Origin: Myxococcota bacterium
GTDB lineage: Bacteria > Myxococcota > XYA12-FULL-58-9 > JABJBS01
Length of the DNA: 64,000 nt
Direction of reading: 5' to 3'
Assembly: GCA_036339465.1 (NCBI GenBank)
Contig: JAYZAY010000059.1
Location: forward strand, 46,471-110,470
Shown here: in pieces, positions 40,003 to 63,007 of the stretch
How positions within the stretch are numbered: position 1 is the stretch's first letter
Layout: every line of letters begins with the position of its first letter
Position numbers and translations under genes: made by a program
Notes under the pieces: model-generated
The model's database searches: none
What the model was told of the DNA's origin: nothing
Seen by the model: only the letters and a program-made list of their open reading frames with translations

Positions 40003-40995
40003 ATGCCTTCCCCACTGATTCGAAGAGCGATTTCAATTTTCACTGTGGTCACCGCTTTTGGGGTGATCCTCATGACGGGGCCCCTGTTGCTTTTGATAGC
40101 GGTGGGTGTGGATTTTCTCATGAATCGGGAAAAATTTCCCCGAAGCCGGTTTGTGGTGTTCATCGCTTGGTTTCTTTTTTGCGAGTTGGGGGGAGTGGTG
40201 TGTGCTTTGGTGATTGGCGGACTTTGCTTTTTTCCAGGGACCTCAGAAAAGACGTACGTCGCGTGGAATTTAGCTTTGCAGCGATGGTGGTCTGGTTCAA
40301 TATTCTCTGGGTTGAAACGTATTTTTTCGCTCAAGATGGAGGTTGAAGGGGTGGAGGCGACAGCCGAGGGGCCCCTGGTTGTGCTGACCCGCCATGTGAG
40401 CAGCGCCGACAGTCTTTTGCCTTCGGCACTGGTCGCCAATCGCTATCACCATAATCTCAGATTCGTCATGAAGGAAAGCCTACAATGGGACCCATGTTTG
40501 GATATTGTGGGAAACCGATTGCCCAATGCCTTCATTCCCAGGAATACGAGAGGCTCCCCTCAAGCCCTGCGCGCCATTGAAAAGGTGGGAATGGATCTCG
40601 ACTCCTCATCGGGCGTGGTGATTTTTCCCGAAGGCACGAGATTCACGCGGAGTAAGCTTGAGGTCTTGCGGACAACTTACACCAAGGGTTCCGGGCGGGC
40701 CGATCCCCATCTCTATGAACACGTGTTGCCGCCAAAGTTTGGAGGTACGGTGGCTCTATTGAAGACCGCCATTGACGCGGATATTGTTTTTTGCGCCCAC
40801 ACTGGTTTGGAGGCGGTGGGCAATATTTGGGATTTGGTCTGTGGTGATTTGATTCATCGTACCATTCGTATCCGTTTCTGGCGCGTCTCCCGGGCTGAGG
40901 TACCTGTGGATGAAGAGGCGCTCCTAAATTGGTTGGTGCAATCTTGGAAAACGCTCGATAGGGCTGTGGGGCACTTGCTGAGCCTGGGGGAATAA
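40003..40995 (+). CDS. PlsC-like lysophospholipid acyltransferase
   Basis: RHVSSAD (HxxxxD), FVMKESL, IFPEGTRFT. Confidence 0.9.
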   Translation: MPSPLIRRAISIFTVVTAFGVILMTGPLLLLIAVGVDFLMNREKFPRSRFVVFIAWFLFCELGGVVCALVIGGLCFFPGTSEKTYVAWNLALQRWWSGSIFSGLKRIFSLKMEVEGVEATAEGPLVVLTRHVSSADSLLPSALVANRYHHNLRFVMKESLQWDPCLDIVGNRLPNAFIPRNTRGSPQALRAIEKVGMDLDSSSGVVIFPEGTRFTRSKLEVLRTTYTKGSGRADPHLYEHVLPPKFGGTVALLKTAIDADIVFCAHTGLEAVGNIWDLVCGDLIHRTIRIRFWRVSRAEVPVDEEALLNWLVQSWKTLDRAVGHLLSLGE

Positions 40996-41012
40996 AGTTA
41001 AGTGAAGAAGAC

Positions 41013-41831
41013 ATGGATATAACTGCGATGATTGAAAATATGAACGCTGTGTGGGAGCAGGCCGCGGGGCCGGCAGGCATGTGGGTGCTCGGTAGTATGA
41101 CGCTTCTCTGGCTGGTTAGTTTGCCCCTGCGGGACGCGAGCATTGCCGATCTTTATTGGGGATTTGGGTATTGCATGGTGGCGGCTTTGGGGCTCCATGC
41201 TTTGGAGCAACCTCTTTTTCGGCATTGGGTTCTTGTGGCTTTGGTGGTGATTTGGGGTATGCGACTTAGCCTCTATTTAGCGATTCGCAATATCGGCCAC
41301 GGTGAGGATTTTAGGTATCGGGCTTTTCGGCGTCATTGGGGGGATAAATATCCTTTCGTGAGTTTTCTCCAGACCTTCATGCTTCAGGGTTGTTTGGTCC
41401 TTATTATTTCGTTACCGGTACAAGCTGGCCTTGTTTCCACCGCTCCGGGATTTGGACTGGTTTCCATATTGGGCTGTGTGGTGTGGGGCATTGGTTTTTT
41501 CTTTGAAGCTGTGGGCGACGCTCAACTTCGGGCTTTTAAGAAAGACCCCACCAACAAAGGCAAAATCATGCGTACGGGGTTGTGGCGCTACACCCGCCAC
41601 CCCAACTATTTTGGCGATACCTGCATTTGGTATGGGGTTTATTTGGTGGCCTGTGGTGGCGGCGGAGCGTGGTGGACTTTGCCAGGACCTTTTCTGATGA
41701 TGTTCTTTCTTTTGCGGGTCTCAGGGGTGCCCATGCTTGAGCATACCATGTCGAAACGGCCTGGCTACGATGATTATGTAGCGACCACCAGCGTATTTTT
41801 CCCCTTACCGCCCAAGAAGGTCACCCAATAG
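41013..41831 (+). CDS. DUF1295 membrane protein (steroid 5-alpha-reductase-like)
   Basis: DASIADLYWG, WGMRL, EDFRY, EAVGDAQL, GLWRYTRHPNYFGD. Confidence 0.9.
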   Translation: MDITAMIENMNAVWEQAAGPAGMWVLGSMTLLWLVSLPLRDASIADLYWGFGYCMVAALGLHALEQPLFRHWVLVALVVIWGMRLSLYLAIRNIGHGEDFRYRAFRRHWGDKYPFVSFLQTFMLQGCLVLIISLPVQAGLVSTAPGFGLVSILGCVVWGIGFFFEAVGDAQLRAFKKDPTNKGKIMRTGLWRYTRHPNYFGDTCIWYGVYLVACGGGGAWWTLPGPFLMMFFLLRVSGVPMLEHTMSKRPGYDDYVATTSVFFPLPPKKVTQ

Positions 41832-41945
41832 GAAGTGATCGATTCCCTGCTTGCTTATATTGGGATGCCCAAATAAACCAAGGCTGCGTAAAACCACAAT
41901 CCATTCTAGGATTGAGCTGATATAGCTTAGGAAGGTATAAAAACG

Positions 41946-42908
41946 TTGACCATCCGATTTGCACAGATTGAGCCCACCACACGGTGCAATTTCACCTGTG
42001 GATTTTGTACTGGCCGAAAGATGTCCCAAGGAGATCTCTCCCTTGATAGTTTCCGAAGGATTCTCGAGTTGCACCCTCAATTAGAGCATATCGAACTTCA
42101 GGGGGAGGGGGAGCCTCTTCTCAACAAGAACTTTGTTCAGATGCTTGAACTGGCCCGAGAAAGAAATATCCGTGTTTCTCTGATCACCAACGGAAGTTTA
42201 CTAACCACCGAAATGATTGATGCGATCCTACGCCTCGAAGTGATGAGCATTCATTGTTCAATGGAGTCGGCGGAGCCTCGAATGTTTCGAGAGATCAGAG
42301 GAGGTAAACTGGAAAAAGTAAGAAAGGGTCTCATGTTGCTCGTCAAGGAGCGAAATAAGAGAGGTCTTAAGTTTCCAACCATTGGGCTTGCCGTTACGGT
42401 TCTACGAAAAACAGTTGATGCTATGCCGGGTATGATTGAGCTTTATGGTGAGATGGGCCTCGATGCGGGGATCTTTGTCCAGCCCTTACAAAAGATGGCT
42501 GTCTACACACGTGCCTATGATGAGGATATGAAACGCCAGCTTCTCAGCCACGAGGATTTACACGCCTACAACAATACCTTGCGCGGAATGGATGGGTTGC
42601 AATCAATCCTCAGAAACAAGAAAAATATTTCGTCGTTTTATCGTGCCTTGGGCAAAAGTATCCAGCCCGGTGAGTCGGGGTGCCCATGGCTTTTGCACGG
42701 TACCTATATCAATTACGCTGGCGACGTGATGCCTTGCTGCACCATCAAGGATACGACGCTGTCTGGTTTGGGCCATATTCGTAACACGCCGCTTTCAAAA
42801 CTCGACGAAGGCCGCAGAAAAATGAATCAACAGATTGTTGAAGGGGCTATCCCGATGGCTTGTGAAGGATGCGGAATTGCAAATAAATTCCAGCGAAAAA
42901 AAACATAA
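41946..42908 (+). CDS. Radical SAM protein with SPASM/twitch domain
   Basis: CNFTCGFC, GEGEPLL, ITNGSLL; C-terminal CPW...GDVMPCC...CEGC. Confidence 0.9.
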   Translation: MTIRFAQIEPTTRCNFTCGFCTGRKMSQGDLSLDSFRRILELHPQLEHIELQGEGEPLLNKNFVQMLELARERNIRVSLITNGSLLTTEMIDAILRLEVMSIHCSMESAEPRMFREIRGGKLEKVRKGLMLLVKERNKRGLKFPTIGLAVTVLRKTVDAMPGMIELYGEMGLDAGIFVQPLQKMAVYTRAYDEDMKRQLLSHEDLHAYNNTLRGMDGLQSILRNKKNISSFYRALGKSIQPGESGCPWLLHGTYINYAGDVMPCCTIKDTTLSGLGHIRNTPLSKLDEGRRKMNQQIVEGAIPMACEGCGIANKFQRKKT

Positions 42909-51800: not shown

Positions 51801-52201
51801 ACTTGAACCTAGCGATTCTTTGTTAAATTGGCTAAATTTTGGCGCTGGAAAAGCGCCTACCCGTGGTTTTTGGACGTGAAACGATTTTCGCACTTCAAAA
51901 TTGGCGAAATCCCGTCCTCATGGGCCTTTGGTCCTACCGAAACAGCGATTTATTTCAGTTTTGGCACGATTTGGGGCCCCACGGGTCGATGTATGGGAAA
52001 TTCGTTTTGATTTTAGATTTTCCGTCTAATTTTCGTTTGATGGGGCTCTATTCACTGAATAGGGATTCGGAATATAGTTCGCACTTTAAATAAGTTGTTT
52101 GTATTCTTGGTGCCCAATTCAATAGCCCAAAATAGACGCCCTATCAGACACTTACCTACACATTGTTCTGAGGCGCCGAGTTTTTTGGGGGAGCTAAAAG
52201 A

Positions 52202-52217
52202 TGGCATGCTTTGTGCG
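52202..52217 (+). promoter_or_regulatory. Possible sigma54 (-24/-12) promoter upstream of the PKS
   Basis: TGGCATGCTTTGTGCG, i.e. GG-N10-GC close to the TGGCACG-N4-TTGC consensus. Confidence 0.35.
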
Positions 52218-52487
52218 TGCTTGGCCCCATTACCATAGGAGGGTTTCCATGAGAATGCATGGTCAAACTGAGATAGATTCACCGAGAAGTACCCAAGAAC
52301 TCCCGCAATTAATTAAGGCGACTAAGTCGGAAAAGGATGACACTGAAGGTTGGCGAAACAAGTCGTGGCGACGTCAGAGTCTCTCTTGGTCGAGAGAATG
52401 GGGCCAAGCTCGAGGCTGTCACCAGCACTAATCCACTTCATTTTGTTCAATTGCTCCGGGTGGAGTCCAGGTTTTTCGAGGATATCA

Positions 52488-55400
52488 ATGTCTAGACCTA
52501 ACACAAATACTGTCCGTGAACCCATTGCCATTATCGGACTAGGGGGCTGCCTTCCAGGAGCCTCCAATATAGAGACCTATTGGAAAAATATATGTGAGGG
52601 TCAAAGTGCCATTCGTGAAGTACCCGCTCAACGATGGAACCCAGACGACTACTATTCCGAAATCAAGACTGAACCCGATAAAACATACAGCAAGATCGGT
52701 GGGTTTTTGGATGAAGTCCCCTTTGAATCCAAGCGTTTTCGAATCCCTCCCAAAACAGCGGATTTTGTCGATAATGTTCAAAAATTGGCATTGACGGCGG
52801 TGGCGGATGCCCTAGAGGATGCGGATCTCCAATTGCGCCAAGATGCTAAAATCGGTCGAAGTTTTGATCGTGAACGCACGGCAGTGATTTTGGGTAATTC
52901 CATGGGTGGGGAGTTCGAGGACAAAACGAATCTAAGGGTTTGGTTTCCCGAAATGCGGAATTTGATTTCCAATAGTCTTGAGAAAAAGAACCTGTCCGAT
53001 TCGGAGGTGAAGTCCATCGTGGAGGAGATTGAATCCACATACAAGCAGAGACTTCCCCCGATTACCGAAGATTCTATGCCCGGTGAATTGTCCAATTGCA
53101 TTGCCGGGCGGGTGGCCAATGCTTTTGATCTATGTGGTCCGAATTTTACGACAGATGCTGCATGTGCTGCTTCAATGGCCGCGGTCAAAACAGCCTTTGA
53201 TGGTCTCCAGCTCGAAGAATTTGATATGGCGGTGGTCGGTGGGGTGGATCAGCAGATGGATCCGCCAACTTTCGTTAAGTTTTCAAAAATAGGTGCATTG
53301 TCGGCAGAAATAAGTGCGCCGTTCGATGCCCGTGCCAGTGGTTTCGTGATGGGAGAAGGGGTTGGGATTCTTGTCTTAAAAAGAGTCTCCGACGCTCTGG
53401 CCGATGGCGACAAAATTTATGCGACCATTCGCGGTATTGGCTCAGCCAGTGATGGCAAGGGTAAAGGGCTTACCGCACCTAATCCTCGGGGGCAAAAGCT
53501 TGCGGTTGCACGTGCCTACGAAAAAATAAACTTCGACATTGATTCGGTTGGATTATTTGAGGCCCATGGTACTGCGACGCCTGTGGGTGACAGGGTCGAA
53601 CTTTCGGTGTTAACGGATTTGCTACGGGAGTCTGGTATGAGTCCCAAGGAAATTCCAATTGGTTCCGTTAAGTCCATGATTGGACACCTTAAAGGTGCCG
53701 CGGGGGCAGCAGCGCTTATCAAAACAAGTCTCGCGCTCCATCACAAAGTGTTACCGCCGAGCACCAATTTCCAAAGACCTACTTCTGGGTCTCCCCTTCA
53801 TGAGAAGTATCTGTCTGTAAATACCAAGACCCAAGTCTGGAATGACTCCGAGTGTCCTCGTCGGGCCGGTGTCAGCGCGTTTGGATTTGGTGGAACGAAC
53901 TTTCATGTGGTTCTCGAAGAGCATTCAGAAAAATCACAAGAATTAAATACTAAGATAAGCCAAGAGAAAGACGAAAAAACCATGGTGACCCCCCGTAAAT
54001 CCGCGCAGCCTACATCCGATCTCAAGGGTCTTATTGTCAGTGTTCAAGAGATCTTTGCTCAGGCGACAGGGTATGAGGCCAATGAATTAGAACCGGATTA
54101 TCTCCTGGAGGCCGATCTCGGTATTGATACGGTGAAGCAGGCAGAGATTATGGCTCAGATACGTGAAACTTACTCCTTACCAAAAGAGGAAAGTTTTAAT
54201 CTATCGGAGATTCAGACGATTTCCGCGGTGGCTCAATACGTACAATCCAGAGTTTCGGTGGCTTGGGGCCAAGGGATTGGCAATGCCCCGGTTAAGGCCA
54301 CAACGGCGGTGGATGCGACCTTGCCAGCGAAAATGTTTCCTTATCTTGCGGTTGAAGGTGTGGATAAAACCGCTTTATTGAATAAGCTTACGGAGATTGA
54401 GTATGCCGATGCCTCCGCTGAGGCGAAGATTTCCTTAACCGGCCAGGTAAGACTCGTCGCTGCCGCACCAACCAAAGAGAGTTTAGATAAAAAGCTCGAG
54501 GGTATCGAAAAAGGAAGTCCTCGTATTCTGCGCAACAAAGGTGTCTATTTCTCTGCGGCGGATTCAGATTTAGACAATGGAAAGATTGCATTTCTCTTTC
54601 CTGGGCAAGGTTCACAGTATTTAAATATGTGTAAGGACCTCGCTGAGGATTATCCCGTTGTCATGGATACATTCCTGGAGGCTGACGGGATTTTAGAACC
54701 GATGATTGGTCGTAAGCTGACTGAGCTTTGTTGGCCAGCGGACATGAGTGATCCGGTACAACGCGATCTTGATTTACGGCAAACCGAAATTTGTCAGCCC
54801 GCCATGCTGGCAGCGGATATAGCACTCATGAGGCTACTTCTCGCCCATGGGATTAGGCCTGATTATGTGGTGGGCCATTCGTTGGGTGAGTATGCGGCGT
54901 GTGTGGCTGCGGGTGTTTTGAGCTTTGCGGATGCAATTTATGCCGTTAGTGCTCGCGGTCGAGAGATGGCGAGTGTGAAAGTGGATGATTGTGGATTAAT
55001 GGCGGTGGTCTTGGGGGGCGTAGAGGAAGTTGAGCCGATTATTTCCTCTGTTGAAGGGTATGTGGTGTCTGCGAATAAGAATTGTTTTAAGCAAACCGTT
55101 ATCGCGGGGGAAACCAAAGCGGTGAAACAGGCGATTGAAAAATGCGTCGCTGCTGGTTTTAATTCTCGGACCATTCCCGTCTCTCACGCTTTTCATACTG
55201 AGATCGTGGCGCCGGCCACGATGCCAATGAGAAAAGTCCTCGATAATTTGGATATACGTTGTGCCGGTATTCCCATTCTTTCGAATGTAACGGGTGAGGA
55301 ATATCCCGAGTCCCCTGAGGAGATCCGGGCTCTATTGACCAAGCAGCTTGCGAGTCCTGTTGAATTCATTAAGCAGGTGGATAGCCTCTATACACGGGGG

Positions 55401-58400
55401 GTTCGGACGTTTATCGAAGTTGGTCCCAAAAAGGCAATCACTGGTTTTGTGACGAACATTTTGGAAAACCGAAAACACGTAGCTCTTTTCACCAATTACC
55501 ATAAGTTGGGTGGTCAGGAGTGTTTTCTCAATTCACTGGCCTATTTGTCCAGTCGTGGGATGACGATCGATTTTGCGGGGACTCAGCCTTCGGAAGTGCA
55601 GCGACGCCCAGAAGTTGCACCTTCGGTAAATTCGCAGCCTCTCAATCTAGCCACAGGCTCTAGCCAAACAAAGACTGTGGTCAGTGGTCTCGGTGTGGCC
55701 TTGCCGAGGGAGGATGCCTGTGGTGGTGTTGATGAGGATCTCTTTGATGAAATCCTGCGGGGAAAGAATTTCATTCGTCATTTGACCCACAAAACCCGTA
55801 CTGAGATGGCAAGCCTAAATATCACCCGAGTTGACAAGGCCAATGGTACCTTCGAAACCATGACCTCCAGTGACGAAGTGATTCAATTGTGTGGTCAGTT
55901 GAATTTGCCAGACTTGGTGGAAGATTATGGTGTGGATGCGGCACTAACTAGCGCCATTGATGCCACAACTAAATTGGCGATTGCCACTGGGATCGAAGCC
56001 TTACGAGACGCAGGGCTTCCCCTCGTACCGCGATACCGAACGACTTCCACAGGTAAAAAACTTTTTGTCGGTTATCGACTTCCTGAAAAAGTAGGGAAGC
56101 GAACCGGCGTTATTTTTGCCTCAGCCTTTCCAGGCTTGGATGAGCTAATCGCGGAGGTGACGAAATTCAATAAACAAGCCGCGAAAAACGAATCGAGCGG
56201 TGAGTCCGTCGCTTATCAATTCGACCGGAAATTTCTTTTTCGGATCCTATCGCTGGGTCATGCTCAATTTGCACAGGTGGTTGGAGCCATGGGGCCCAAT
56301 ACCCAAATAAACGCCGCCTGTGCAGCGGGAGCGCAAGCTATTGGCATTGCCAGTGATTGGATTACTTTGGGGCGTTGTGATCGAGTGGTTGTTCTCTCCG
56401 CTGACGATGCAACAAATGAATCGAGCTTTGCGTGGCTCGGTGCAGGATTCCTCGCCACTGGTGCGGCCAGTGTTGCTACGGATGCGACCAAAGCTGCGGT
56501 TCCTTTCGGAAAGAATCGCAACGGTATGATTATGGGCTGCGGTGCTGCGGCATTTGTGGTGGAAAAGGATGCAGAATGTAGAGCTCGGGGAATCTTACCT
56601 TTGGTGGAAATATTGGCGTCTAGGTTCGCCAACAGTGCCTTTCATGCCACACGATTGGAATTTGGCTCCATTCGAGAGAACTTCAATGAGTTCATCGATA
56701 CCCTTTGTTCTAAAGTTGGAATTAGCCGTGCTGAATTAGCGCGTCGTTGTTTTTTTATGTCCCATGAAACCTATACCCCCGCGAGGGGCGGGAGTTCAGC
56801 GGCCGAAATGGACGCACTCCGCGATGTCTTCGGCGACGAAGTGGGTAAAGTTCTTATTAGTAACACCAAAGGCTTTACCGGCCACCCCATGGGCGCATCC
56901 CTTGAGGATGCCGTGGCGGTGAAGGGGCTGCAGCGGGGGCTTGTTCCACCGATTGCCAATTTCACCGAAGTGGATCCAGACTTCTCAGACTTACATTTTG
57001 CTCGGGGACAAGAGGATCAGAAGCGAGACATCGGTATTCGATTTGCGGCCGGTTTTGGGTCCCAATTGGCTCTTAATGGCTATCGGCGCATCGCCACTTC
57101 GGAAAATCGGTGGCTCGATAAAGTACGATTTATGGAATGGAGCAAGGAGATGTCAGGGCTTGAAGAGCCGGCTTTCTTAATCGAGCATCGCCAATTTCGG
57201 ATTGTTGAGAAAGCGGGGAAGCCTTTGGATGAGATGAAGTTGTGGCGGGGTTTTGATCCAGGTGCGGAGGCCGTTACTGAAGATAATGCGGGTTTTGTTG
57301 TTCGTGGCGACCAGAAACCCTCGAGACAACGTTCAGAACTTCTTACGGAGATAGTGTCTCTTTTTGTGACAGAAACGGGCTATGAAGAAAGTGAATTAGG
57401 TCCCGGATTTGACCTGGAAAGTGACTTAGGAATCGATACCGTCAAGCAAGCTGAGATACTGGCCATGGTCAGAGATCGATACCCACTTGTCGACGGCGAA
57501 CTGAAACCACTGAGTGAATTGAATACGATTGATCGGCTGGTGGATTTCATCTTTTCAAAGCTTTCTGACACAGCCCATGAGTATGGCTCAGCCGCTCCTA
57601 TTGATAGCCAAGCTCCCTTATCTCGTTCGCATATTGCCTCCTTTCAATATTCCGAAGATGCAATTCGAGCCCGTGTTCTGACTATCTTTTGTGAGCAGAC
57701 TGGTTATACGCCGTCTGATTTCGAGGACGACCATCTTCTCGAAGAAGATCTCGGGATCGACACGGTGAAACAAGCAGAGGTTTTTAGTCTCTTAACGGAA
57801 GAGTTTGGTTTAGAACGGGACGAAAATTTCATTTTGGCCGATTTGAATACCGTAGGTCGAATCGTTCAGTTTGTGCAGACCTTTGAATCCATCGAGAAGT
57901 CCGATGACTTGGTGTATTCATCCGCCCAAAGTGTCTCGATGAAAATCGATTCCACCGACTACATGACCAATATTAAAATGATTTTCGCCGCCGAAACGGG
58001 CTATGAGCCAGAGGAACTCGAAGATGATTTATTACTGGAAGCGGATTTAGGAATCGATACCGTTAAGCAAGCTGAGGTTATGGCTCGCGTGCGAGAGGCC
58101 TATGGGTTGGCTCAAAGTGAAAGTTTCAATCTTTCCGATTATCAAACCTTGGAACAAATTACGCAATATGTTGCAGCCAAAGTCGATTTAAGTACCCAGG
58201 CCGATTCTCTAGAAACCGTTGCGAAAATTCCAACTCCCATTGAAGATGAGGCTTTAACCGAAACGGTGAATAACGTTAAAGCTCCGAAATTAGACCTTGG
58301 CTCATTCTCAGTTAGGCCTGTGGCGTTTGGTTGGACTGAAAATCTGACGGACATCACCTCTATTTGGAAAGGGAAAAAGGTATGGCTCTTGGGAGGTGAC

Positions 58401-61400
58401 AGCCGAATTCAGCAAGAGCTTAGAAAGGAATTTGAATTAAGTGGAGCACAAGTAAATAACGCAGACGGAAATGCCCTTGTTACCGATGATACAGGTATGG
58501 AGGGTGCCGGCCTTTCTCCAGTCCACGGGATCTTCCTACTCGATAGTCCCACTTGGCACTGTGACTCTTACCAAAGTCGTCGGAATCAAGCGCAACGTTT
58601 CATTGCCATGATCCGGGAAATATTGAAGTCGCAAGCTTGGACAAACAAGCTAGAGGCCGTTGGCGTTCTATCACTCGGTAATGGTGACCGCGGATTTGGT
58701 TATACTCCGAGTATTCCGGTTGATATTGGTGGACTCTTTTCGGGGTGGCTAAAGTCTTTGAATCGAGAATTGGCAGCCGTTCGTTGTGTGCATATTCAGA
58801 CTGAATCGTCCTTTCTCGCAACCCACGAAGGTAGGCGGGCGCTCCTAAGTGAAATGGCTTTGGGGGATAGTGCAGAAGTTAGCTATTTTCTGGGGAGGCG
58901 CTGTGTGTCCTACCTAGAGGATTCTAAAGAGCTTTCAAATCTTGAAGTTGTCATTCCTGAAGGTCTTACTGTGGTGACGGGGGGGGCGCGAGGTGTTACT
59001 TACGAGATCGCAAAGAGACTGGTCGAAAAAGGAATTAGAAGACTTGTTTTGGTGGGGCGAACTTCGTTACCGAGTCCGGAAACGGTCGAATTTATGGCGC
59101 TGAGTGAGGCGGAAAAGAAACGTCAGGCTAAGACATCATTGTCGGAAGCTTGCGGCAAGGTCACACCACTGATGGTGAAGGATTGGATTGCCGCTAAGGC
59201 AAAGCAGGTTGAAATAGCTGAGAATGTTTTGTGTTTGAATGAGATGGGTGCCGACACCAATTACGTTTCTTGTGATTTAGGCAATGAACAATCCATCGAG
59301 GGCTTGGTCAGGAATATCCGAACGAAATATGGTGAAGTAGGGCTCTTAATTCACGGTGCAGGTATTGAAGAATCTAAGTTATTTGTGGACAAAGATGATG
59401 ATTCTTTAATGCGTAGTTTTGCGCCGAAGGCCGAGGCGTTTCGGATACTTGTGGATGAACTTCAACCCAGCCGCACCCTCACCATGGGGTCTGTCGCGGG
59501 TCGTTTTGGAAATGCCAGCCAGACAGATTATGCCGCTGCCAACGATGCCTTGGCCCCTTGGAGCCGTAATTCACATAACAATGCAGTCCATGTTGATTGG
59601 ACGGCATGGGGCGACGTCGGTATGGCGATGAAATCCGGTGTGAAGGCTAGCCTAGAGAGTACTGGCGTTGAGTTTCTCCCTGCGATTTTGGGTGCTGAAA
59701 TAGGGGCCCGATTGGCTTTGAGCTCGGTGGGCGGTGAGTTTGTTGTGGCGGGGGAGTTGGGTGGCTTTACTCCTGCCCCTTCCAGTTACCGTCCCATGGG
59801 TCATCTCGATTTAGAGGAGATCGTGGAGCGTTCTCCATTTGATTCAGCGGTGATTGATGGACAGAGATGTGTCTTTCGGAAAGTGTTTCACCCAGAAGAG
59901 GACTTAGGGTTGGCGCACCACAAGATTGATGGGGTGGCTGTTTTTCCTGGCGTTTTGGGTGTGGAGTTTGGTGTTCAAGCTGCCGAACACTTTATTGGTA
60001 AACCCATGGTTGAAATAACGGAGGTTGAGTTTAAGGCTCCAATTAAGTTTCATCACGGCAAGGAACTGACTGTTGAATTCTCTGTGGAGAAAATATCGGA
60101 AACGCAATTTGATATTCAAGTGCTGTCTGTTTTTAAGACACCTAAGGGACTTGAACGAACCAAGTCGCATTTTGAGATGAAGTCGTCCATCTCTTGTCTG
60201 TCGCCTTCTGAACTCGTTCGATACCCCGTTGCCGAGTTTTGTACGCCTACCCGTAAATCGATTTACGACCTCTATTTTCATGGCGAGAGTTTTCAAGTGA
60301 TAGATTGGGTCGAGAGCTTGGCCGCAAATGGTGCGGTTGCACATAGCTTTGATTTTAAGTCTGGGTGGGTTCGCAATTTTCCGGCGGAATCCATGACAAC
60401 TTCTCCTGCTGCTCGGGAACTTGGTTTTCAAACCGCGGGTGTTTGGGAAATGAACACCACAGGCAAGATGAATTTGCCGGCGCGAATTGCGAAAGTTCAG
60501 CGGCGCAGTGCAGTGGTGGGCGAATATGCCGTTCGTGCAATTGTTAGTCAATCTCTAGAAGGCTCTGGCGCGATCGATGTTTGGGTGTACGATACCTCCG
60601 GTAATCTTTGCGATACGATGATAGGCTACGAGACCGTTGAGCTTCGCGAATTGAGTAAAGATGAATCGGCGAACTTTACCCCTTGGGATCTAGGTGGCGA
60701 TGCAACCTTGATTCATATTCAGGAAATTAAGAGGTCTATTACTCTTGACGGTGGTCGAGCTTTACTCGGTTATTTGTCGGATAAGGAGATGGCGACATAC
60801 TCTGAAAAGAAGTCAGAAAAACGTCGATTGGATTGGTCTGCGGGCCGTATTGCCTCGAAAGTGAGTCTGCAAAGACGTTTGTTTCAGGAGGAGAATATAT
60901 GGGTTCCAGCCCATCATATTTCCGTGGAGCCCAATGCGTTGGGCGAGCCGCAAGTTCTTATTGGAGGAGAGCTAAACCGGGCATGGTCGATTTCTATCAC
61001 CCATAGTGCGGGGTGGGCTTTGGCTCAGGTTGGTGAGTGTAGTAAAGAGAGATTGGGTCTTGATGTTGAATCCGTTGAATCTCGGCACCCGTCTTGGGGG
61101 AAGACCTACTTTAGTGAGAACGAACAAAAGGTTGCTTGGGAGTCAGGAGGTACTTGGCTGTTGACTGCCTGTTGGGCGGTTAAGGAGGCCTTGATGAAAG
61201 CCTTAGGGATAGGTGCCCGGGTAGATTTCAGGGAGATTGAAGTTCAGAAACACGAAGGAATTTGGAGTGTCACCCTCGCTGATTCCCTCAAAATGAGGTT
61301 GTTGGAATTGGGTGCAGGGGTTTCAGAGGTGACTGTACATCTCTTTGGGGACCGAGTTTTGGCCCGAGTGAAATTGTCGATGATTGAATCGACGGGTACG

Positions 61401-61484
61401 GTTCGGCCGAAAACAACAGAGGAGATGCCGGTGGGGCATTTCACCTCGATAGTCGCAGGTACGCGTTATGAGATAGGAGAATAA
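52488..61484 (+). CDS. Iterative type I PKS/FAS-like megasynthase: KS-ACP-AT-KS-ACP-ACP-ACP-KR-DH-PPTase (2998 aa)
   Basis: KS1 DAACAAS / EAHGT / GHLK; AT FPGQGSQ / GHSLGE / SHAFH; KS2 NAACAAG / SHETYT / GHPMG; four ACP-like repeats LGIDTVKQAE; KR TGGARGV and DYAAAN; DH HKIDGVAVFPG; PPTase SITHS / GLDVE / WAVKEALMKA. ATG 52488 with GAGG SD. Confidence 0.95.
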   Translation: MSRPNTNTVREPIAIIGLGGCLPGASNIETYWKNICEGQSAIREVPAQRWNPDDYYSEIKTEPDKTYSKIGGFLDEVPFESKRFRIPPKTADFVDNVQKLALTAVADALEDADLQLRQDAKIGRSFDRERTAVILGNSMGGEFEDKTNLRVWFPEMRNLISNSLEKKNLSDSEVKSIVEEIESTYKQRLPPITEDSMPGELSNCIAGRVANAFDLCGPNFTTDAACAASMAAVKTAFDGLQLEEFDMAVVGGVDQQMDPPTFVKFSKIGALSAEISAPFDARASGFVMGEGVGILVLKRVSDALADGDKIYATIRGIGSASDGKGKGLTAPNPRGQKLAVARAYEKINFDIDSVGLFEAHGTATPVGDRVELSVLTDLLRESGMSPKEIPIGSVKSMIGHLKGAAGAAALIKTSLALHHKVLPPSTNFQRPTSGSPLHEKYLSVNTKTQVWNDSECPRRAGVSAFGFGGTNFHVVLEEHSEKSQELNTKISQEKDEKTMVTPRKSAQPTSDLKGLIVSVQEIFAQATGYEANELEPDYLLEADLGIDTVKQAEIMAQIRETYSLPKEESFNLSEIQTISAVAQYVQSRVSVAWGQGIGNAPVKATTAVDATLPAKMFPYLAVEGVDKTALLNKLTEIEYADASAEAKISLTGQVRLVAAAPTKESLDKKLEGIEKGSPRILRNKGVYFSAADSDLDNGKIAFLFPGQGSQYLNMCKDLAEDYPVVMDTFLEADGILEPMIGRKLTELCWPADMSDPVQRDLDLRQTEICQPAMLAADIALMRLLLAHGIRPDYVVGHSLGEYAACVAAGVLSFADAIYAVSARGREMASVKVDDCGLMAVVLGGVEEVEPIISSVEGYVVSANKNCFKQTVIAGETKAVKQAIEKCVAAGFNSRTIPVSHAFHTEIVAPATMPMRKVLDNLDIRCAGIPILSNVTGEEYPESPEEIRALLTKQLASPVEFIKQVDSLYTRGVRTFIEVGPKKAITGFVTNILENRKHVALFTNYHKLGGQECFLNSLAYLSSRGMTIDFAGTQPSEVQRRPEVAPSVNSQPLNLATGSSQTKTVVSGLGVALPREDACGGVDEDLFDEILRGKNFIRHLTHKTRTEMASLNITRVDKANGTFETMTSSDEVIQLCGQLNLPDLVEDYGVDAALTSAIDATTKLAIATGIEALRDAGLPLVPRYRTTSTGKKLFVGYRLPEKVGKRTGVIFASAFPGLDELIAEVTKFNKQAAKNESSGESVAYQFDRKFLFRILSLGHAQFAQVVGAMGPNTQINAACAAGAQAIGIASDWITLGRCDRVVVLSADDATNESSFAWLGAGFLATGAASVATDATKAAVPFGKNRNGMIMGCGAAAFVVEKDAECRARGILPLVEILASRFANSAFHATRLEFGSIRENFNEFIDTLCSKVGISRAELARRCFFMSHETYTPARGGSSAAEMDALRDVFGDEVGKVLISNTKGFTGHPMGASLEDAVAVKGLQRGLVPPIANFTEVDPDFSDLHFARGQEDQKRDIGIRFAAGFGSQLALNGYRRIATSENRWLDKVRFMEWSKEMSGLEEPAFLIEHRQFRIVEKAGKPLDEMKLWRGFDPGAEAVTEDNAGFVVRGDQKPSRQRSELLTEIVSLFVTETGYEESELGPGFDLESDLGIDTVKQAEILAMVRDRYPLVDGELKPLSELNTIDRLVDFIFSKLSDTAHEYGSAAPIDSQAPLSRSHIASFQYSEDAIRARVLTIFCEQTGYTPSDFEDDHLLEEDLGIDTVKQAEVFSLLTEEFGLERDENFILADLNTVGRIVQFVQTFESIEKSDDLVYSSAQSVSMKIDSTDYMTNIKMIFAAETGYEPEELEDDLLLEADLGIDTVKQAEVMARVREAYGLAQSESFNLSDYQTLEQITQYVAAKVDLSTQADSLETVAKIPTPIEDEALTETVNNVKAPKLDLGSFSVRPVAFGWTENLTDITSIWKGKKVWLLGGDSRIQQELRKEFELSGAQVNNADGNALVTDDTGMEGAGLSPVHGIFLLDSPTWHCDSYQSRRNQAQRFIAMIREILKSQAWTNKLEAVGVLSLGNGDRGFGYTPSIPVDIGGLFSGWLKSLNRELAAVRCVHIQTESSFLATHEGRRALLSEMALGDSAEVSYFLGRRCVSYLEDSKELSNLEVVIPEGLTVVTGGARGVTYEIAKRLVEKGIRRLVLVGRTSLPSPETVEFMALSEAEKKRQAKTSLSEACGKVTPLMVKDWIAAKAKQVEIAENVLCLNEMGADTNYVSCDLGNEQSIEGLVRNIRTKYGEVGLLIHGAGIEESKLFVDKDDDSLMRSFAPKAEAFRILVDELQPSRTLTMGSVAGRFGNASQTDYAAANDALAPWSRNSHNNAVHVDWTAWGDVGMAMKSGVKASLESTGVEFLPAILGAEIGARLALSSVGGEFVVAGELGGFTPAPSSYRPMGHLDLEEIVERSPFDSAVIDGQRCVFRKVFHPEEDLGLAHHKIDGVAVFPGVLGVEFGVQAAEHFIGKPMVEITEVEFKAPIKFHHGKELTVEFSVEKISETQFDIQVLSVFKTPKGLERTKSHFEMKSSISCLSPSELVRYPVAEFCTPTRKSIYDLYFHGESFQVIDWVESLAANGAVAHSFDFKSGWVRNFPAESMTTSPAARELGFQTAGVWEMNTTGKMNLPARIAKVQRRSAVVGEYAVRAIVSQSLEGSGAIDVWVYDTSGNLCDTMIGYETVELRELSKDESANFTPWDLGGDATLIHIQEIKRSITLDGGRALLGYLSDKEMATYSEKKSEKRRLDWSAGRIASKVSLQRRLFQEENIWVPAHHISVEPNALGEPQVLIGGELNRAWSISITHSAGWALAQVGECSKERLGLDVESVESRHPSWGKTYFSENEQKVAWESGGTWLLTACWAVKEALMKALGIGARVDFREIEVQKHEGIWSVTLADSLKMRLLELGAGVSEVTVHLFGDRVLARVKLSMIESTGTVRPKTTEEMPVGHFTSIVAGTRYEIGE

Positions 61485-61486
61485 CA

Positions 61487-63007
61487 ATGTCTTCACTATT
61501 GAATACTAAAGACAAGAAGGAAGTTGAGGATAAACCTGTTCTAGCGCGGGGGGCGGAGTTAACGGCTCGGGGTCGCTTAGAGCAGCTATTTGATGCTGGT
61601 ACCTTTATGGAACTGGATAAGAACATCCATCATCGATCACGGTCTTTTGGGATGGATAAGAGAGAAATTCCAGGTGATGGAGTTGTGTGTGGTTTTGGGG
61701 AAGTGAATGGTCAAACCGTCTATGCTTATTCGCAGGATCGAAACGTGCTGGGTGGTTCCCTTGGTGAGGCCCATGCCCAAAAGATTGTCAAAATTATGGA
61801 TATGGCCGGAAAATCAGGTTGTCAAATTGTGGGTATTAACGACTCTGGTGGTGCTAGGATTCAAGAAGGAGTTGAGGCTTTGGCGGGTTACGGTGAGATT
61901 TTCCGCCGAAATGTGGCATATTCAGGCGTGATACCGCAAATATCCCTGATCATGGGACCTTCGGCCGGAGGCGCTGTCTACTCACCAGCGCTTACCGATT
62001 TTGTGGTGATGATTGATAAAAAGAGTTATATGTTTGTGACCGGGCCAAAGGTTGTTGCTGCAGTTACCAGTGAGAATGTCGACACGGAAACACTTGGAGG
62101 CGGGCGAGTTCATGCAGAGAAGAGTGGGGTTGCCCATTTCTTGACCGGTAGTGAGGTTGAGGCACTCGAGACTGCTCGCGAAATACTTTCCTATCTACCG
62201 GCGAATAATTTTGGGGATGCCCCTTTTCTCCCCACCGACGATCTGCCGCATCGGAAGGTTCCTGAATTGGAATCGATTGTCCCAAAAGAAACGAATCGTC
62301 CCTACGATGCTCAATTGGTCATTGATGCCGTATTTGACCGCGATAGCTTCTTAGAGGTTCGAGGCAATTGGGCGCAAAATATTCGCGTGGGTTTCGCGAG
62401 GCTTGGTGGGTATCCGGTTGGTGTTGTCGCAAATAACCCGATGTTTATGGCAGGTGTTGTGGACATCGATGCGGCTCGTAAAGGGGCGCGTTTCGTTCGG
62501 ACCTGTAATGCTTTTGGTATTCCTCTTGTGACTTTGATCGATGTTCCCGGTTTTCTCCCAGGAAAAGAGCAGGAGCACGCGGGGATTATCGATCATGGTG
62601 CGAAATTAGCCTATGCCTATTGTGAAGCCACGGTGCCCAAACTAAGTGTTATTTTGCGGAAGTCCTACGGTGGTGCTTATATTGTGATGAGTAGTAAGCA
62701 TGTGGGTGGAGATATCAACCTCGCTTGGCCTCAAGCTGAAATTGCGGTGATGGGAGCAGGTGGTGCGGTTGAGATTTTGCATTCGAAAGAACTCAAAAAT
62801 CATCCTGAACCAGCGAATCGCTCCAAGGAACTCAGTGATGAGTACAATGAGCGCTTTGCAAATCCTGGGGTCGCAGAGGCTCGCGGTTTCCTAGACGCTG
62901 TCATTCAGCCGGCCGAGACCCGCTTTACGCTTTATCGCAGTTTGAGAGCAGTGCTAGCCAAAAGAGAGTCGCTGCCAGAAAAACGCAACGGTAATGTACC
63001 CATGTAG
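61487..63007 (+). CDS. Acyl-CoA carboxylase carboxyltransferase (beta) subunit, PccB/AccD-like
   Basis: GDGVV, GGSLG, DSGGARIQEG, AGGAVYSPALTD, DVPGFLPG, HGAKL, RKSYGGAY, AEIAVMGA; starts 2 nt after the PKS stop. Confidence 0.95.
   Translation: MSSLLNTKDKKEVEDKPVLARGAELTARGRLEQLFDAGTFMELDKNIHHRSRSFGMDKREIPGDGVVCGFGEVNGQTVYAYSQDRNVLGGSLGEAHAQKIVKIMDMAGKSGCQIVGINDSGGARIQEGVEALAGYGEIFRRNVAYSGVIPQISLIMGPSAGGAVYSPALTDFVVMIDKKSYMFVTGPKVVAAVTSENVDTETLGGGRVHAEKSGVAHFLTGSEVEALETAREILSYLPANNFGDAPFLPTDDLPHRKVPELESIVPKETNRPYDAQLVIDAVFDRDSFLEVRGNWAQNIRVGFARLGGYPVGVVANNPMFMAGVVDIDAARKGARFVRTCNAFGIPLVTLIDVPGFLPGKEQEHAGIIDHGAKLAYAYCEATVPKLSVILRKSYGGAYIVMSSKHVGGDINLAWPQAEIAVMGAGGAVEILHSKELKNHPEPANRSKELSDEYNERFANPGVAEARGFLDAVIQPAETRFTLYRSLRAVLAKRESLPEKRNGNVPM

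Follow-up and report, generated by a model that had tools for sequence, protein, structure and literature searches.

Threonine-bearing carrier domains and a second condensing domain in a Type R secondary lipid synthase of a marine Myxococcota bacterium

What does a single gene make that encodes two ketosynthase (KS) domains, one acyltransferase (AT), four carrier domains, a ketoreductase (KR), a dehydratase (DH) and its own phosphopantetheinyl transferase (PPTase), and to which of the known megasynthases is it related? This question is raised by a gene located at positions 52488 to 61484 of a 64,000-nucleotide stretch of DNA (this whole stretch is referred to here as the window) from the Myxococcota bacterium assembly GCA_036339465.1 (contig JAYZAY010000059.1, positions 46,471 to 110,470 of the forward strand). 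As judged from the sequence comparisons described below, the encoded protein belongs to the "Type R secondary lipid synthase" family, which has been described before but not characterised, and represents a clade variant within it. The answer that we favour, with moderate confidence, is an iterative fatty-acid/polyketide-type megasynthase (type I) of this family, which makes an acyl lipid chain by the scheme proposed in this work. The most unusual feature of the protein, which was overlooked in a preliminary description made from the letters of the window, is the presence of threonine in place of the carrier serine.

The gene lies in a single uninterrupted frame (52350-61484, + strand, in an open reading frame (ORF) scan of the window), and its likely start is the ATG at 52488, which is the first ATG preceded by a GAGGA-like site and gives a protein of 2,998 amino acids (aa). 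The domains were identified by Pfam searches with the whole protein and with eight pieces of it, and the features of the gene are as follows.

52488..61484, + strand: whole synthase gene, in the order KS1, carrier 1, AT, KS2, carriers 2-4, KR, DH, PPTase (ORF, translation, Pfam)
52518..53966, + strand: KS1 (aa 11-428) and KS C-terminal extension (to aa 493), of PfaA/polyketide synthase (PKS) type, Cys226-His360-His400 (Pfam)
54036..54251, + strand: carrier 1 (~aa 517-588), in the KS-AT linker, Thr548 with codon ACG at 54129-54131 (PP-binding and family carrier hidden Markov model (HMM))
54591..55484, + strand: acyltransferase (aa 702-999), GHS798LGE, Arg823, H900-A-F-H903 (Acyl_transf_1, 147.8 bits)
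55662..56984, + strand: KS2 (aa 1059-1499), a divergent condensing domain, Cys1278-His1426-His1466, the "CLF" of Type R (Pfam)
57330..58187, + strand: three tandem carriers (aa ~1615-1900), Thr1651, Thr1759 and Thr1858 with codons ACC, ACG and ACC (Pfam, HMM)
58965..59612, + strand: ketoreductase catalytic subdomain (aa 2160-2375), Ser2335, Tyr2348, Asn2352 (KR, 97.2 bits)
59859..60653, + strand: PKS-type double-hotdog dehydratase (aa 2458-2722), His2478-x3-Gly-x4-Pro and Glu2644-x3-Gln2648 (Pfam)
60717..61343, + strand: fused two-lobed (Sfp-like) PPTase (aa ~2744-2952), with His, GxDxE and WxxKExxxK kept (ACPS, 48.6 bits)

These results agree with the order KS-ACP-AT-KS-(ACP)3-KR-DH-PPTase (ACP, acyl carrier protein) given in the preliminary description, the boundaries of which lie within a few tens of bases of those found by Pfam, including its two KS domains with one AT and its carrier between KS and AT, which is a weak PP-binding match above the threshold (25.8 bits vs a cut-off of 20.8). 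Carriers 2-4 correspond to three PP-binding matches within aa 1581-1940, KS2 to a ketoacyl-synt match of 50.9 bits (aa 1064-1492), the DH to PKS_DH_N (aa 2458-2547, 47.3 bits) and PS-DH (aa 2596-2722, 30.9 bits), and the ACPS match in the PPTase covers aa 2856-2923. The catalytic residues of KS1, AT, KS2, KR, DH and PPTase are all intact. In an alignment of 24 full-length members of the family, Cys226, His360 and His400 of KS1, Cys1278, His1426 and His1466 of KS2, GHS798, Arg823 and H900-A-F-H903 of the AT, Tyr2348 and Asn2352 of the KR, and His2478 of the DH are invariant (24/24). In PKS acyltransferases the motif HAFH goes with malonyl specificity.

In the carriers of family PF00550, the conserved serine of the D-S-L motif bears the 4'-phosphopantetheine, and we know of no carrier protein in which a residue other than serine holds the cofactor arm. 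The carriers of the window protein match PF00550 at the level of the fold, but in all four of them, each of which reads DLGIDTVKQAE, this position is occupied by Thr, which, in alignments with the PigH and AcpM carriers of solved structure, falls on the Ser that bears the phosphopantetheine. The same residue is seen throughout the family: of the 640 carrier domains detected in 196 proteins with a family carrier HMM, 616 have Thr, 15 have Ser and 9 show a gap or another residue, the motif being DLG[IV]DTVKQAE, with each of the neighbouring residues D, L, G, K, Q, A and E found in at least 623 of the 640 domains. The attachment-site codons in the loci of the family are ACC (101), ACG (91), ACT (16), ACA (11) and AGT (2). 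As all four Thr codons are in use, while Ser is one base away, the Thr is being kept at the protein level, and together with the near-invariant motif this points to selection on Thr itself. Further, the Ser-type members convert every carrier at once (viz. 4/4 in P0006, 4/4 in P0030 and 3/3 in P0042, all of them metagenome proteins), and P0006 and P0030 are sisters in the trees of both KS domains. In the window's own genome, AcpP and the carriers encoded on two other contigs (C22 and C33, described below) have Ser, and Ser is also present in the true PfaA carriers of the same phylum, which read DLGIDSIKRVEIL.

We infer that the fused PPTase is the dedicated partner which attaches phosphopantetheine to these Thr residues. 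The genome contains exactly two PPTase-family matches, viz. the fused domain and a stand-alone gene on contig C62. The fused domain is far removed from the PPTases of solved structure (the best match is AcpS, E 0.004; Sfp scores 15.8 bits, E 0.07), and its motifs His, GxDxE and WxxKExxxK are conserved across 69 deduplicated Thr-type PPTase domains (from 92 detected). When these were compared with the Ser-type PPTases, a small set that comes partly from one clade, one weakly discriminating column was seen, which differs in 3 of the 4 Ser-type sequences; this column lies four residues past GxDxE and has Glu in 81% of the Thr-type domains, against Ala, Thr and Ala in P0006, P0030 and P0042, respectively. 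This comparison, which gives no clear specificity determinant, favours an alternative explanation, viz. that the carriers are not phosphopantetheinylated at Thr but are inactive or structural, or are modified elsewhere, the Thr being a quirk of the family. The same explanation is favoured by the literature, as in the accessible full text, which includes few subscription journals, no report of a Thr-linked phosphopantetheine or of the Thr motif was found. However, the Thr carriers are the only carriers of a synthase whose KS, AT, KR and DH residues are conserved, the motif of carrier 1 contains no alternative Ser, and the PPTase is either fused (in 54 of 149 near-full-length family proteins, a sample skewed to relatives of the window's KS2) or encoded by an adjacent downstream gene (in 28 of 58 loci). 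The near-invariance of the motif and the use of four Thr codons are likewise not expected of a mere quirk, and we consider this explanation unlikely, attachment of the cofactor to Thr being the interpretation that we prefer.

Several other carrier arrangements were observed in this work. In the complete genome of Candidatus Heimdallarchaeum aukensis (locus L021, CP084166.1 479140-504123), there are two adjacent synthase-like ORFs in which KS and AT are duplicated, the carriers are mixed (2 Ser, 1 Thr), and an identical PPTase sequence is found both fused and as a separate ORF; no AcpP match was found in this genome. In the class relative G059 (L104 10966-19464), a third carrier (aa 2216-2291) is separated by a long stretch from the first tandem carrier (aa 1648-1723) and closely precedes the PPTase, indicating that carrier placement varies within the class. 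The window's genome (G000) also encodes a second megasynthase on contig C22 (G000:C22:12555-19571; L081 4556-11572) with fatty acyl-AMP ligase (FAAL), KS, AT, DH-like, ACP (Ser type) and thioesterase (TE) domains, flanked by genes for a KAS III-like protein, an AMP-ligase, a cupin and an NAD-epimerase. The KAS III-like gene is the top FabH-like match of the genome (187 bits vs a cut-off of 292). On contig C33 (G000:C33:74974-79241; L083 2975-7242), overlapping genes for KS-ACP and AT-ACP proteins (Ser carrier) are followed by two genes without a family match.

With regard to the two KS domains, the preliminary description had proposed phylogenies against a series of reference synthases; of these, the tree constructed here includes PfaA and PfaC, along with FabF and PKS sequences (a quick IQ-TREE run with 59 KS domains, in which KS2 is on a long stem). 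The KS1 domains of the family form one group (SH-aLRT 86) placed beside the KS domains of PfaA, PfaC and PKSs (joint support 99), and the best NCBIfam model for KS1 is the PfaA KS (431 bits). The KS2 domains form a clade of their own (SH-aLRT 100), which joins neither the KS/CLF (chain-length factor) domains of PfaC nor FabF. The top PDB match of KS2 is FabF (1j3n, 89 bits), with the Cys, His and His residues aligned, and its top NCBIfam model is likewise that for FabF (TIGR03150, 139 bits). The KS1 subtree is congruent with the KS2 subtree, which indicates that the arrangement with two KS domains is old and has been inherited as a unit. A chain-length factor, in the usual usage of this term, is without the active-site Cys. 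As the triad of KS2 is invariant and aligns with that of FabF, the so-called CLF of this family is predicted to be an intact condensing enzyme, i.e. a catalytically intact and deep-branching KS, an observation that we have not found in print.

The family to which this synthase belongs was described by Shulse and Allen in 2011 (PLoS One 6:e20146; PMC3098273). In the available text of that paper, Type R is a pfaA-like gene with the order KS-MAT-CLF-ACP(3-6)-KR (MAT, malonyl-CoA:ACP transacylase), followed by a PPTase gene; the product of the synthase is uncharacterised, and its hosts are Koribacter, Solibacter, Elusimicrobium and Roseiflexus, an acetyl-CoA carboxylase (ACC) complex gene being interposed in Koribacter. 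The window protein has this order, viz. KS, MAT, second KS, three tandem carriers plus one extra and KR, and the associated PPTase is fused here at its C-terminus. Homology was judged on relatives from Roseiflexus, Korobacteraceae and Elusimicrobiota rather than on the exact strains of the paper: the Roseiflexus proteins P0107 and P0114 are collinear over their full length, they fall inside both the KS1 and the KS2 groups of the tree, and they share 45% identity with the window protein in the KS2 region; the Korobacteraceae and Elusimicrobiota loci (L078, L079) are also homologous and collinear with it. The second KS-like domain is not a chain-length factor in the sense given above, as its Cys-His-His residues are kept. 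However, the intact KS2 contradicts the "CLF" label and not the membership in Type R, because the triad is kept in the Roseiflexus members too.

The preliminary description had regarded the architecture as unusual. This view does not hold, as the Type R order has been known since 2011 (PMC3098273, in the text available) and the family is a large one. A search with the KS2 region gave 2,714 homologues at E<=1e-3 among 7,995 scored, and the best 120 of these have mostly the same Pfam set, the named ones coming from Myxococcota, Roseiflexus, Anaerolineae, Actinomycetota and Asgard metagenome-assembled genomes (MAGs). A scan with a profile-derived pattern, limited to one genome per species, identified at least 693 stretches, of which at least 690 are confirmed relatives, and a phmmer search of KS2 against 1.84 billion cluster representatives (50% identity) gave 507 clusters at E<=1e-30. 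From among the matches listed in the pattern scan, 80 loci were kept, which come from Acidobacteriota, Actinomycetota, Chloroflexota, Myxococcota, Elusimicrobiota, Rhodothermales, Heimdallarchaeota and Thermoplasmatota. In the skewed sample of 149 proteins, a carrier precedes the AT in 29, and this carrier and the fused PPTase are found together in 25. The idea that the architecture is unique was rejected on these grounds, in favour of a clade variant of a common family. A result showing an already known architecture with a known product had been named in advance as one that would overturn the preliminary description; the architecture has indeed been described before, whereas the product is uncharacterised in the available text of PMC3098273.

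The relationship of this protein to PfaA also needs to be considered, since the top NCBIfam model for the whole protein is PfaA (TIGR02813), that for KS1 is the PfaA KS, and tandem carriers are present in both, all of which would be expected if the gene were a PfaA orthologue, i.e. the first subunit of a polyunsaturated fatty acid (PUFA) synthase. However, the score of 862.1 bits is below the TIGR02813 cut-off of 1010.1, KS1 is not part of the clade (SH-aLRT 96) that the six true PfaA KS domains form, and no FabA-type dehydratase/isomerase domain is found in the synthase by Pfam. The partners of PfaA in PUFA synthesis include pfaC (KS-CLF-DH2) and pfaD, an enoyl reductase (ER). In the present case, pfaB, pfaC and pfaD are absent from the window, no PfaD-type ER was detected in the genome by tblastn, and the true PfaA carriers have Ser. 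Orthology with PfaA is in our view very improbable. The suggestion that the protein is a mosaic of PfaA and the enediyne synthase PksE also has to be given up in favour of Type R, the order of which it matches (PMC3098273, available text), the PfaA cut-off having been missed (862 vs 1010 bits).

The gene is real and intact. As the assembly was derived from a metagenome and comprises 102 contigs, a mis-assembly or a chimera of two synthase genes, which the preliminary description had itself raised, was considered. In one public metagenome run (X3), a contig skips 520 nt (53359-53880, inside KS1); its loose ends are unrelated and the joint has only 20 letters on one side. It is probably from another strain or an assembly artefact, and it was given no weight. 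The evidence opposing a chimera is of several kinds. KS2 homologues are found inside ORFs of 2,800-3,180 aa in 18 of the 22 genomes of the window's class, and KS2 is present in 12 of the 13 high-quality genomes of the class; the relatives G052, G055 and G059 resemble the window protein in that a carrier is inserted between KS and AT, the carriers have Thr and the PPTase is fused, and collinear homologues occur in many phyla. The KS1 and KS2 subtrees, as noted, are congruent. Lastly, contigs from four public marine or seawater runs belonging to four studies match the gene (74 of 76 at >=99% identity) without any insertions or deletions seen; in two of these runs (X1 and X2) the synthase is covered in 30/30 bins each, and single contigs span the KS1/carrier 1, carrier 1/AT, AT/KS2, KR/DH and PPTase/carboxyltransferase junctions. 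No RNA run appeared among the public runs listed for this sequence. With class homologues that are collinear and contigs that bridge the junctions, the probability of a chimera is close to nil. The form seen in the window is the one typical of its uncultured, marine, Myxococcota-like class. An additional scan of metagenome contigs, carried out with a single protein, gave four distant loci (29-40% identity) and is uninformative on the window's own clade.

Two further features border the synthase gene.

51894..52487, no strand: gene-free region of 594 nt, presumed promoter and leader, separating the synthase start from the divergent bactofilin gene
61487..63007, + strand: acyl-CoA carboxylase carboxyltransferase (beta) subunit, starting 2 nt past the synthase stop (Carboxyl_trans, 597.5 bits)

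The gene-free region contains one weak sigma-70-like site (52051-52078), which is fewer than in shuffled sequence, and an Rfam scan of 51894-52487 gave nothing at E<=1. The carboxyltransferase scores 680 bits against the mmdA/PccB-type model, under its cut-off of 999. Its nearest named relatives are from Myxococcota and "Deltaproteobacteria" MAGs (71-74% identity), followed by cultured Bradymonadales (Lujinxingia, Persicimonas) at ~60%. It follows the synthase in the class relatives at 73-74% identity, and in L007 and L012 as well. Upstream of the synthase are mreB-mreC-mreD-pbp2-rodA, thioredoxin, a hypothetical gene and bactofilin, and an AlgH-like gene lies past the carboxyltransferase; the order rodA, bactofilin, synthase, carboxyltransferase, AlgH is partly conserved in the class relatives. 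As stated in the preliminary description, this is a housekeeping setting, and no tailoring, transport or resistance genes were found near the synthase in the window. A paralogous carboxyltransferase (56% identity; G000:C85:15696-19177) adjoins biotin carboxylase and biotin carboxyl carrier protein (BCCP) genes, which are likely partners of the synthase-linked carboxyltransferase. Further, three neighbouring genes located 10 kb upstream of the synthase in the window (40003-42908, + strand), which encode an acyltransferase of PlsC type, a membrane protein with DUF1295 and a radical SAM/SPASM enzyme, may form a lipid-modifying set.

The gene neighbourhoods of the family, a survey of which had been suggested in the preliminary description, are informative about the reactions that may accompany the synthase. 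In this survey, the neighbours in the 80 loci were clustered and named by Pfam and NCBIfam, and the counts in relation to the flanks are for the 58 loci with >=2.5 kb of flank. A gene for an acyl-CoA dehydrogenase (ACAD; 561 aa), for which the top model is an electron-transfer flavoprotein (ETF)-dependent acryloyl-CoA reductase, below its cut-off, is present directly upstream in 38 of the 58 loci, and ahead of it lie ETF-alpha (16 loci), ETF-beta (15) and a CCG/4Fe-4S (Fe-S) oxidoreductase (18). Downstream, a single-chain acetyl-CoA carboxylase (~1,870 aa) is found in 25 loci, any carboxylase gene in 35, and a PfaD-type ER in 5 (all Anaerolineae). Either the ACAD or the PfaD-type ER is present in 40 of the 55 loci with both flanks. 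Further, 11 of the best 120 homologues contain a fused PF03060 ER domain, as in P0048, where the order is ER-KS-AT-KS-ACP-KR-DH-PPTase; this count is from Pfam, since blastp with an Anaerolineae PfaD-type ER missed fused ER domains that are visible by Pfam. These two unrelated solutions for the reductase, along with a private supply of malonyl-CoA, suggest that the acyl chain is reduced and is produced at high flux. In the accessible full text, nothing relevant was found on this gene cassette or in the way of follow-up reports on Type R.

The scheme that we infer, which extends to the product, the choice of enoyl reductase, the manner of release and the modification of Thr, would operate as follows. 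The carboxylase would make malonyl-CoA, which the single AT would load onto the four carriers, and the condensations would be shared by the PfaA-like KS1 and by KS2, an intact domain of a separate lineage, probably for different ranges of chain length. The KR and DH would take each beta-keto group to the enoyl stage, and the enoyl group would be reduced in trans, for which the candidates in this genome are its two FabI homologues. As no thioesterase is present, release would probably be by acyl transfer, and what is made would most likely be a long acyl chain destined for a lipid of the membrane or of the envelope.

Another question is how this synthase is related to type II fatty-acid synthesis (FAS II; FAS, fatty-acid synthase). 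The window's genome (92.8% complete) contains FabF (570 bits), AcpP, FabG-like and FabZ-like proteins and the two FabI homologues, which are 46.5% and 43.6% identical to the E. coli enzyme. No canonical FabD above cut-off was found in this genome, in which the top FabD-like sequence is the synthase AT (223 bits against the FabD model; 35.8% identity to E. coli FabD). Among the 22 genomes of the class (viz. G043-G063 and the window's own), FabD above cut-off is present in 2, and the synthase AT is the sole FabD match in G059 (100% complete) and G057 (92%). True FabF, within the class, is limited to the window's own family (5 of 22 genomes). According to the available text of PMC8174602, the MAT domain of PfaA replaces FabD in vivo, and this precedent makes a FabD-like role plausible for the synthase AT. 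As the class appears to have lost FabD, the synthase AT may also be the source of malonyl-ACP for those FAS II enzymes that remain.

Of the 42 host genomes examined across the family, four, viz. Heimdallarchaeum (complete), Anaerolinea, Leptolinea and Avelusimicrobium (1.5 Mb), show no FabF-like or FabD-like match other than the domains of the synthase itself. AcpP is present in the three bacterial genomes of this kind (Anaerolinea, Leptolinea and Avelusimicrobium). Most simply, the synthase in these four genomes would be the fatty-acid synthase of the cell. These results lead to a broader proposal, which we advance tentatively and rate as somewhat short of probable, that a self-contained, Thr-using pair of carrier and PPTase operates here in a widespread fourth kind of FAS, with two KS domains, an ER (of ACAD/ETF or PfaD type) acting in trans and its own ACC, which replaces FAS II in some lineages and the function of FabD in the window's class. 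The lineages in which FAS II has been replaced outright may be Anaerolineae, Elusimicrobiota and Heimdallarchaeia. The synthase as the primary FAS everywhere was rejected, as 38 of the 42 host genomes keep a FabF-like KS.

A number of observations, in addition to those on the PPTase column and on the literature of Thr noted earlier, weigh against the scheme and the broader proposal. A stand-alone FabF-like KS (E<=1e-75) is found in 38 of the 42 host genomes and FabD above cut-off in 25, for which reason the synthase should be regarded as an accessory to, and not as the core of, fatty-acid synthesis in most lineages; the absence of FabD in the class rests on assemblies which, except for G059, are incomplete. 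Beside the synthase, neither the window nor three relatives of its class have ACAD/ETF or PfaD-type ER genes; tblastn of the window's genome (E<=1e-5) detected neither a PfaD-type ER nor the Fe-S partner, and the best ACAD of this genome shows 31% identity and is without the C-terminal extension of the family. No conserved thioesterase or acyltransferase was found in the family cassette in the 80 loci, and the release step is a guess. It is possible that FabI acts in trans, or that the chain is left unreduced, in which case the product could be a polyene.

The latter alternative, viz. that the protein is a polyene- or enediyne-type iterative PKS similar to PksE or RerA, which makes a conjugated polyene as a pigment or as the precursor of a secondary metabolite, draws on the missing reductase genes just described, on the C-terminal order KR-DH-PPTase without an ER domain (Pfam), and on a described parallel: in the available text of PMC11563203, RerA (KS-AT-ACP2-KR-DH) and RerB (PPTase-Y-TE) make polyenes up to C22 nonaenes. 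However, the window contains neither a thioesterase partner of the RerB/SgcE10 type nor tailoring genes, the synthase has a second KS and three to four carriers, its relatives have ER genes or domains and their own ACC, the gene is conserved vertically in a housekeeping setting (18 of 22 class genomes), and in the four genomes named above it is the only system with KS and MAT. A polyene product is therefore improbable. The lipid chain is ranked above it because of the vertical conservation, the gene's own carboxyltransferase, the lack of thioesterase and tailoring genes, and the enoyl reductases of the relatives. The lean of the preliminary description towards a core or secondary lipid, and away from an antibiotic, is supported by the same 18 of 22 genomes, the syntenic setting and the carboxyltransferase, and the ER and ACC genes of the relatives fit with it as well.

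The interest of this locus rests on the Thr carriers, the intact second KS, and the cassette of reductase and carboxylase genes. To our knowledge, attachment to Ser is taken to be a rule without exception among acyl, peptidyl and aryl carriers, and both annotation tools and PPTase-based labelling depend on it. A large family that selects Thr (616 of the 640 domains sampled), with sources in Acidobacteriota, Actinomycetota, Chloroflexota, Myxococcota, Elusimicrobiota and two archaeal phyla, would change this rule, and if Thr is the attachment site, the carrier and PPTase would provide an orthogonal pair for engineering. In addition, the Type R family is among the most widespread megasynthases without a known product, and its partner genes, together with the genomes in which it is the sole system, lead to the testable hypothesis of a complete alternative fatty-acid synthase, which is relevant to the way in which fatty acids are made in some Chloroflexota, Elusimicrobiota and Asgard archaea. 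The Thr carriers, the intact KS2, the context of ACAD/ETF/Fe-S or ER genes with ACC, and the relation to FAS II were not found in print in the accessible full text.

In comparison with known systems, the closest is Type R itself, to which the window form adds the carrier in the KS-AT linker and the fusion of the PPTase. The second domain, called a chain-length factor in the available text of PMC3098273, keeps its Cys-His-His here and across the family, and that text, as available, makes no mention of a DH domain, of Thr carriers, or of ACAD/ETF/Fe-S or ER partners. With PfaA, the top-scoring curated model, the synthase shares a homologous KS1, AT, tandem carriers and KR, whereas it has in addition a second KS in cis, a PKS-type DH, a PPTase and Thr carriers. 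The likeness to PksE and RerA/RerB (PMC11563203, available text) is in the order ACP-KR-DH-PPTase, the lack of an ER domain and the iterative logic. However, those systems have a single KS with one or two carriers of the Ser type, and a thioesterase partner and a cluster for a secondary metabolite go with them, none of which applies here: the synthase has two KS domains and four carriers, and no thioesterase or enediyne cassette was found in the window, no dedicated search having been made elsewhere in the genome. Lastly, with the FAS I of fungi and of the Corynebacterium-Mycobacterium-Nocardia (CMN) type the synthase shares the character of a single large enzyme with a PPTase integrated at its C-terminus, and the PPTase domain of a yeast-type FAS alpha subunit is a weak PDB match (4v58, E 0.058). 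In FAS I, malonyl loading and product off-loading are both carried out by one transferase. The two are, however, unrelated in scaffold and in the order of their domains, and FAS I has its own ER and a Ser carrier, whereas the carriers of the synthase described here have Thr.

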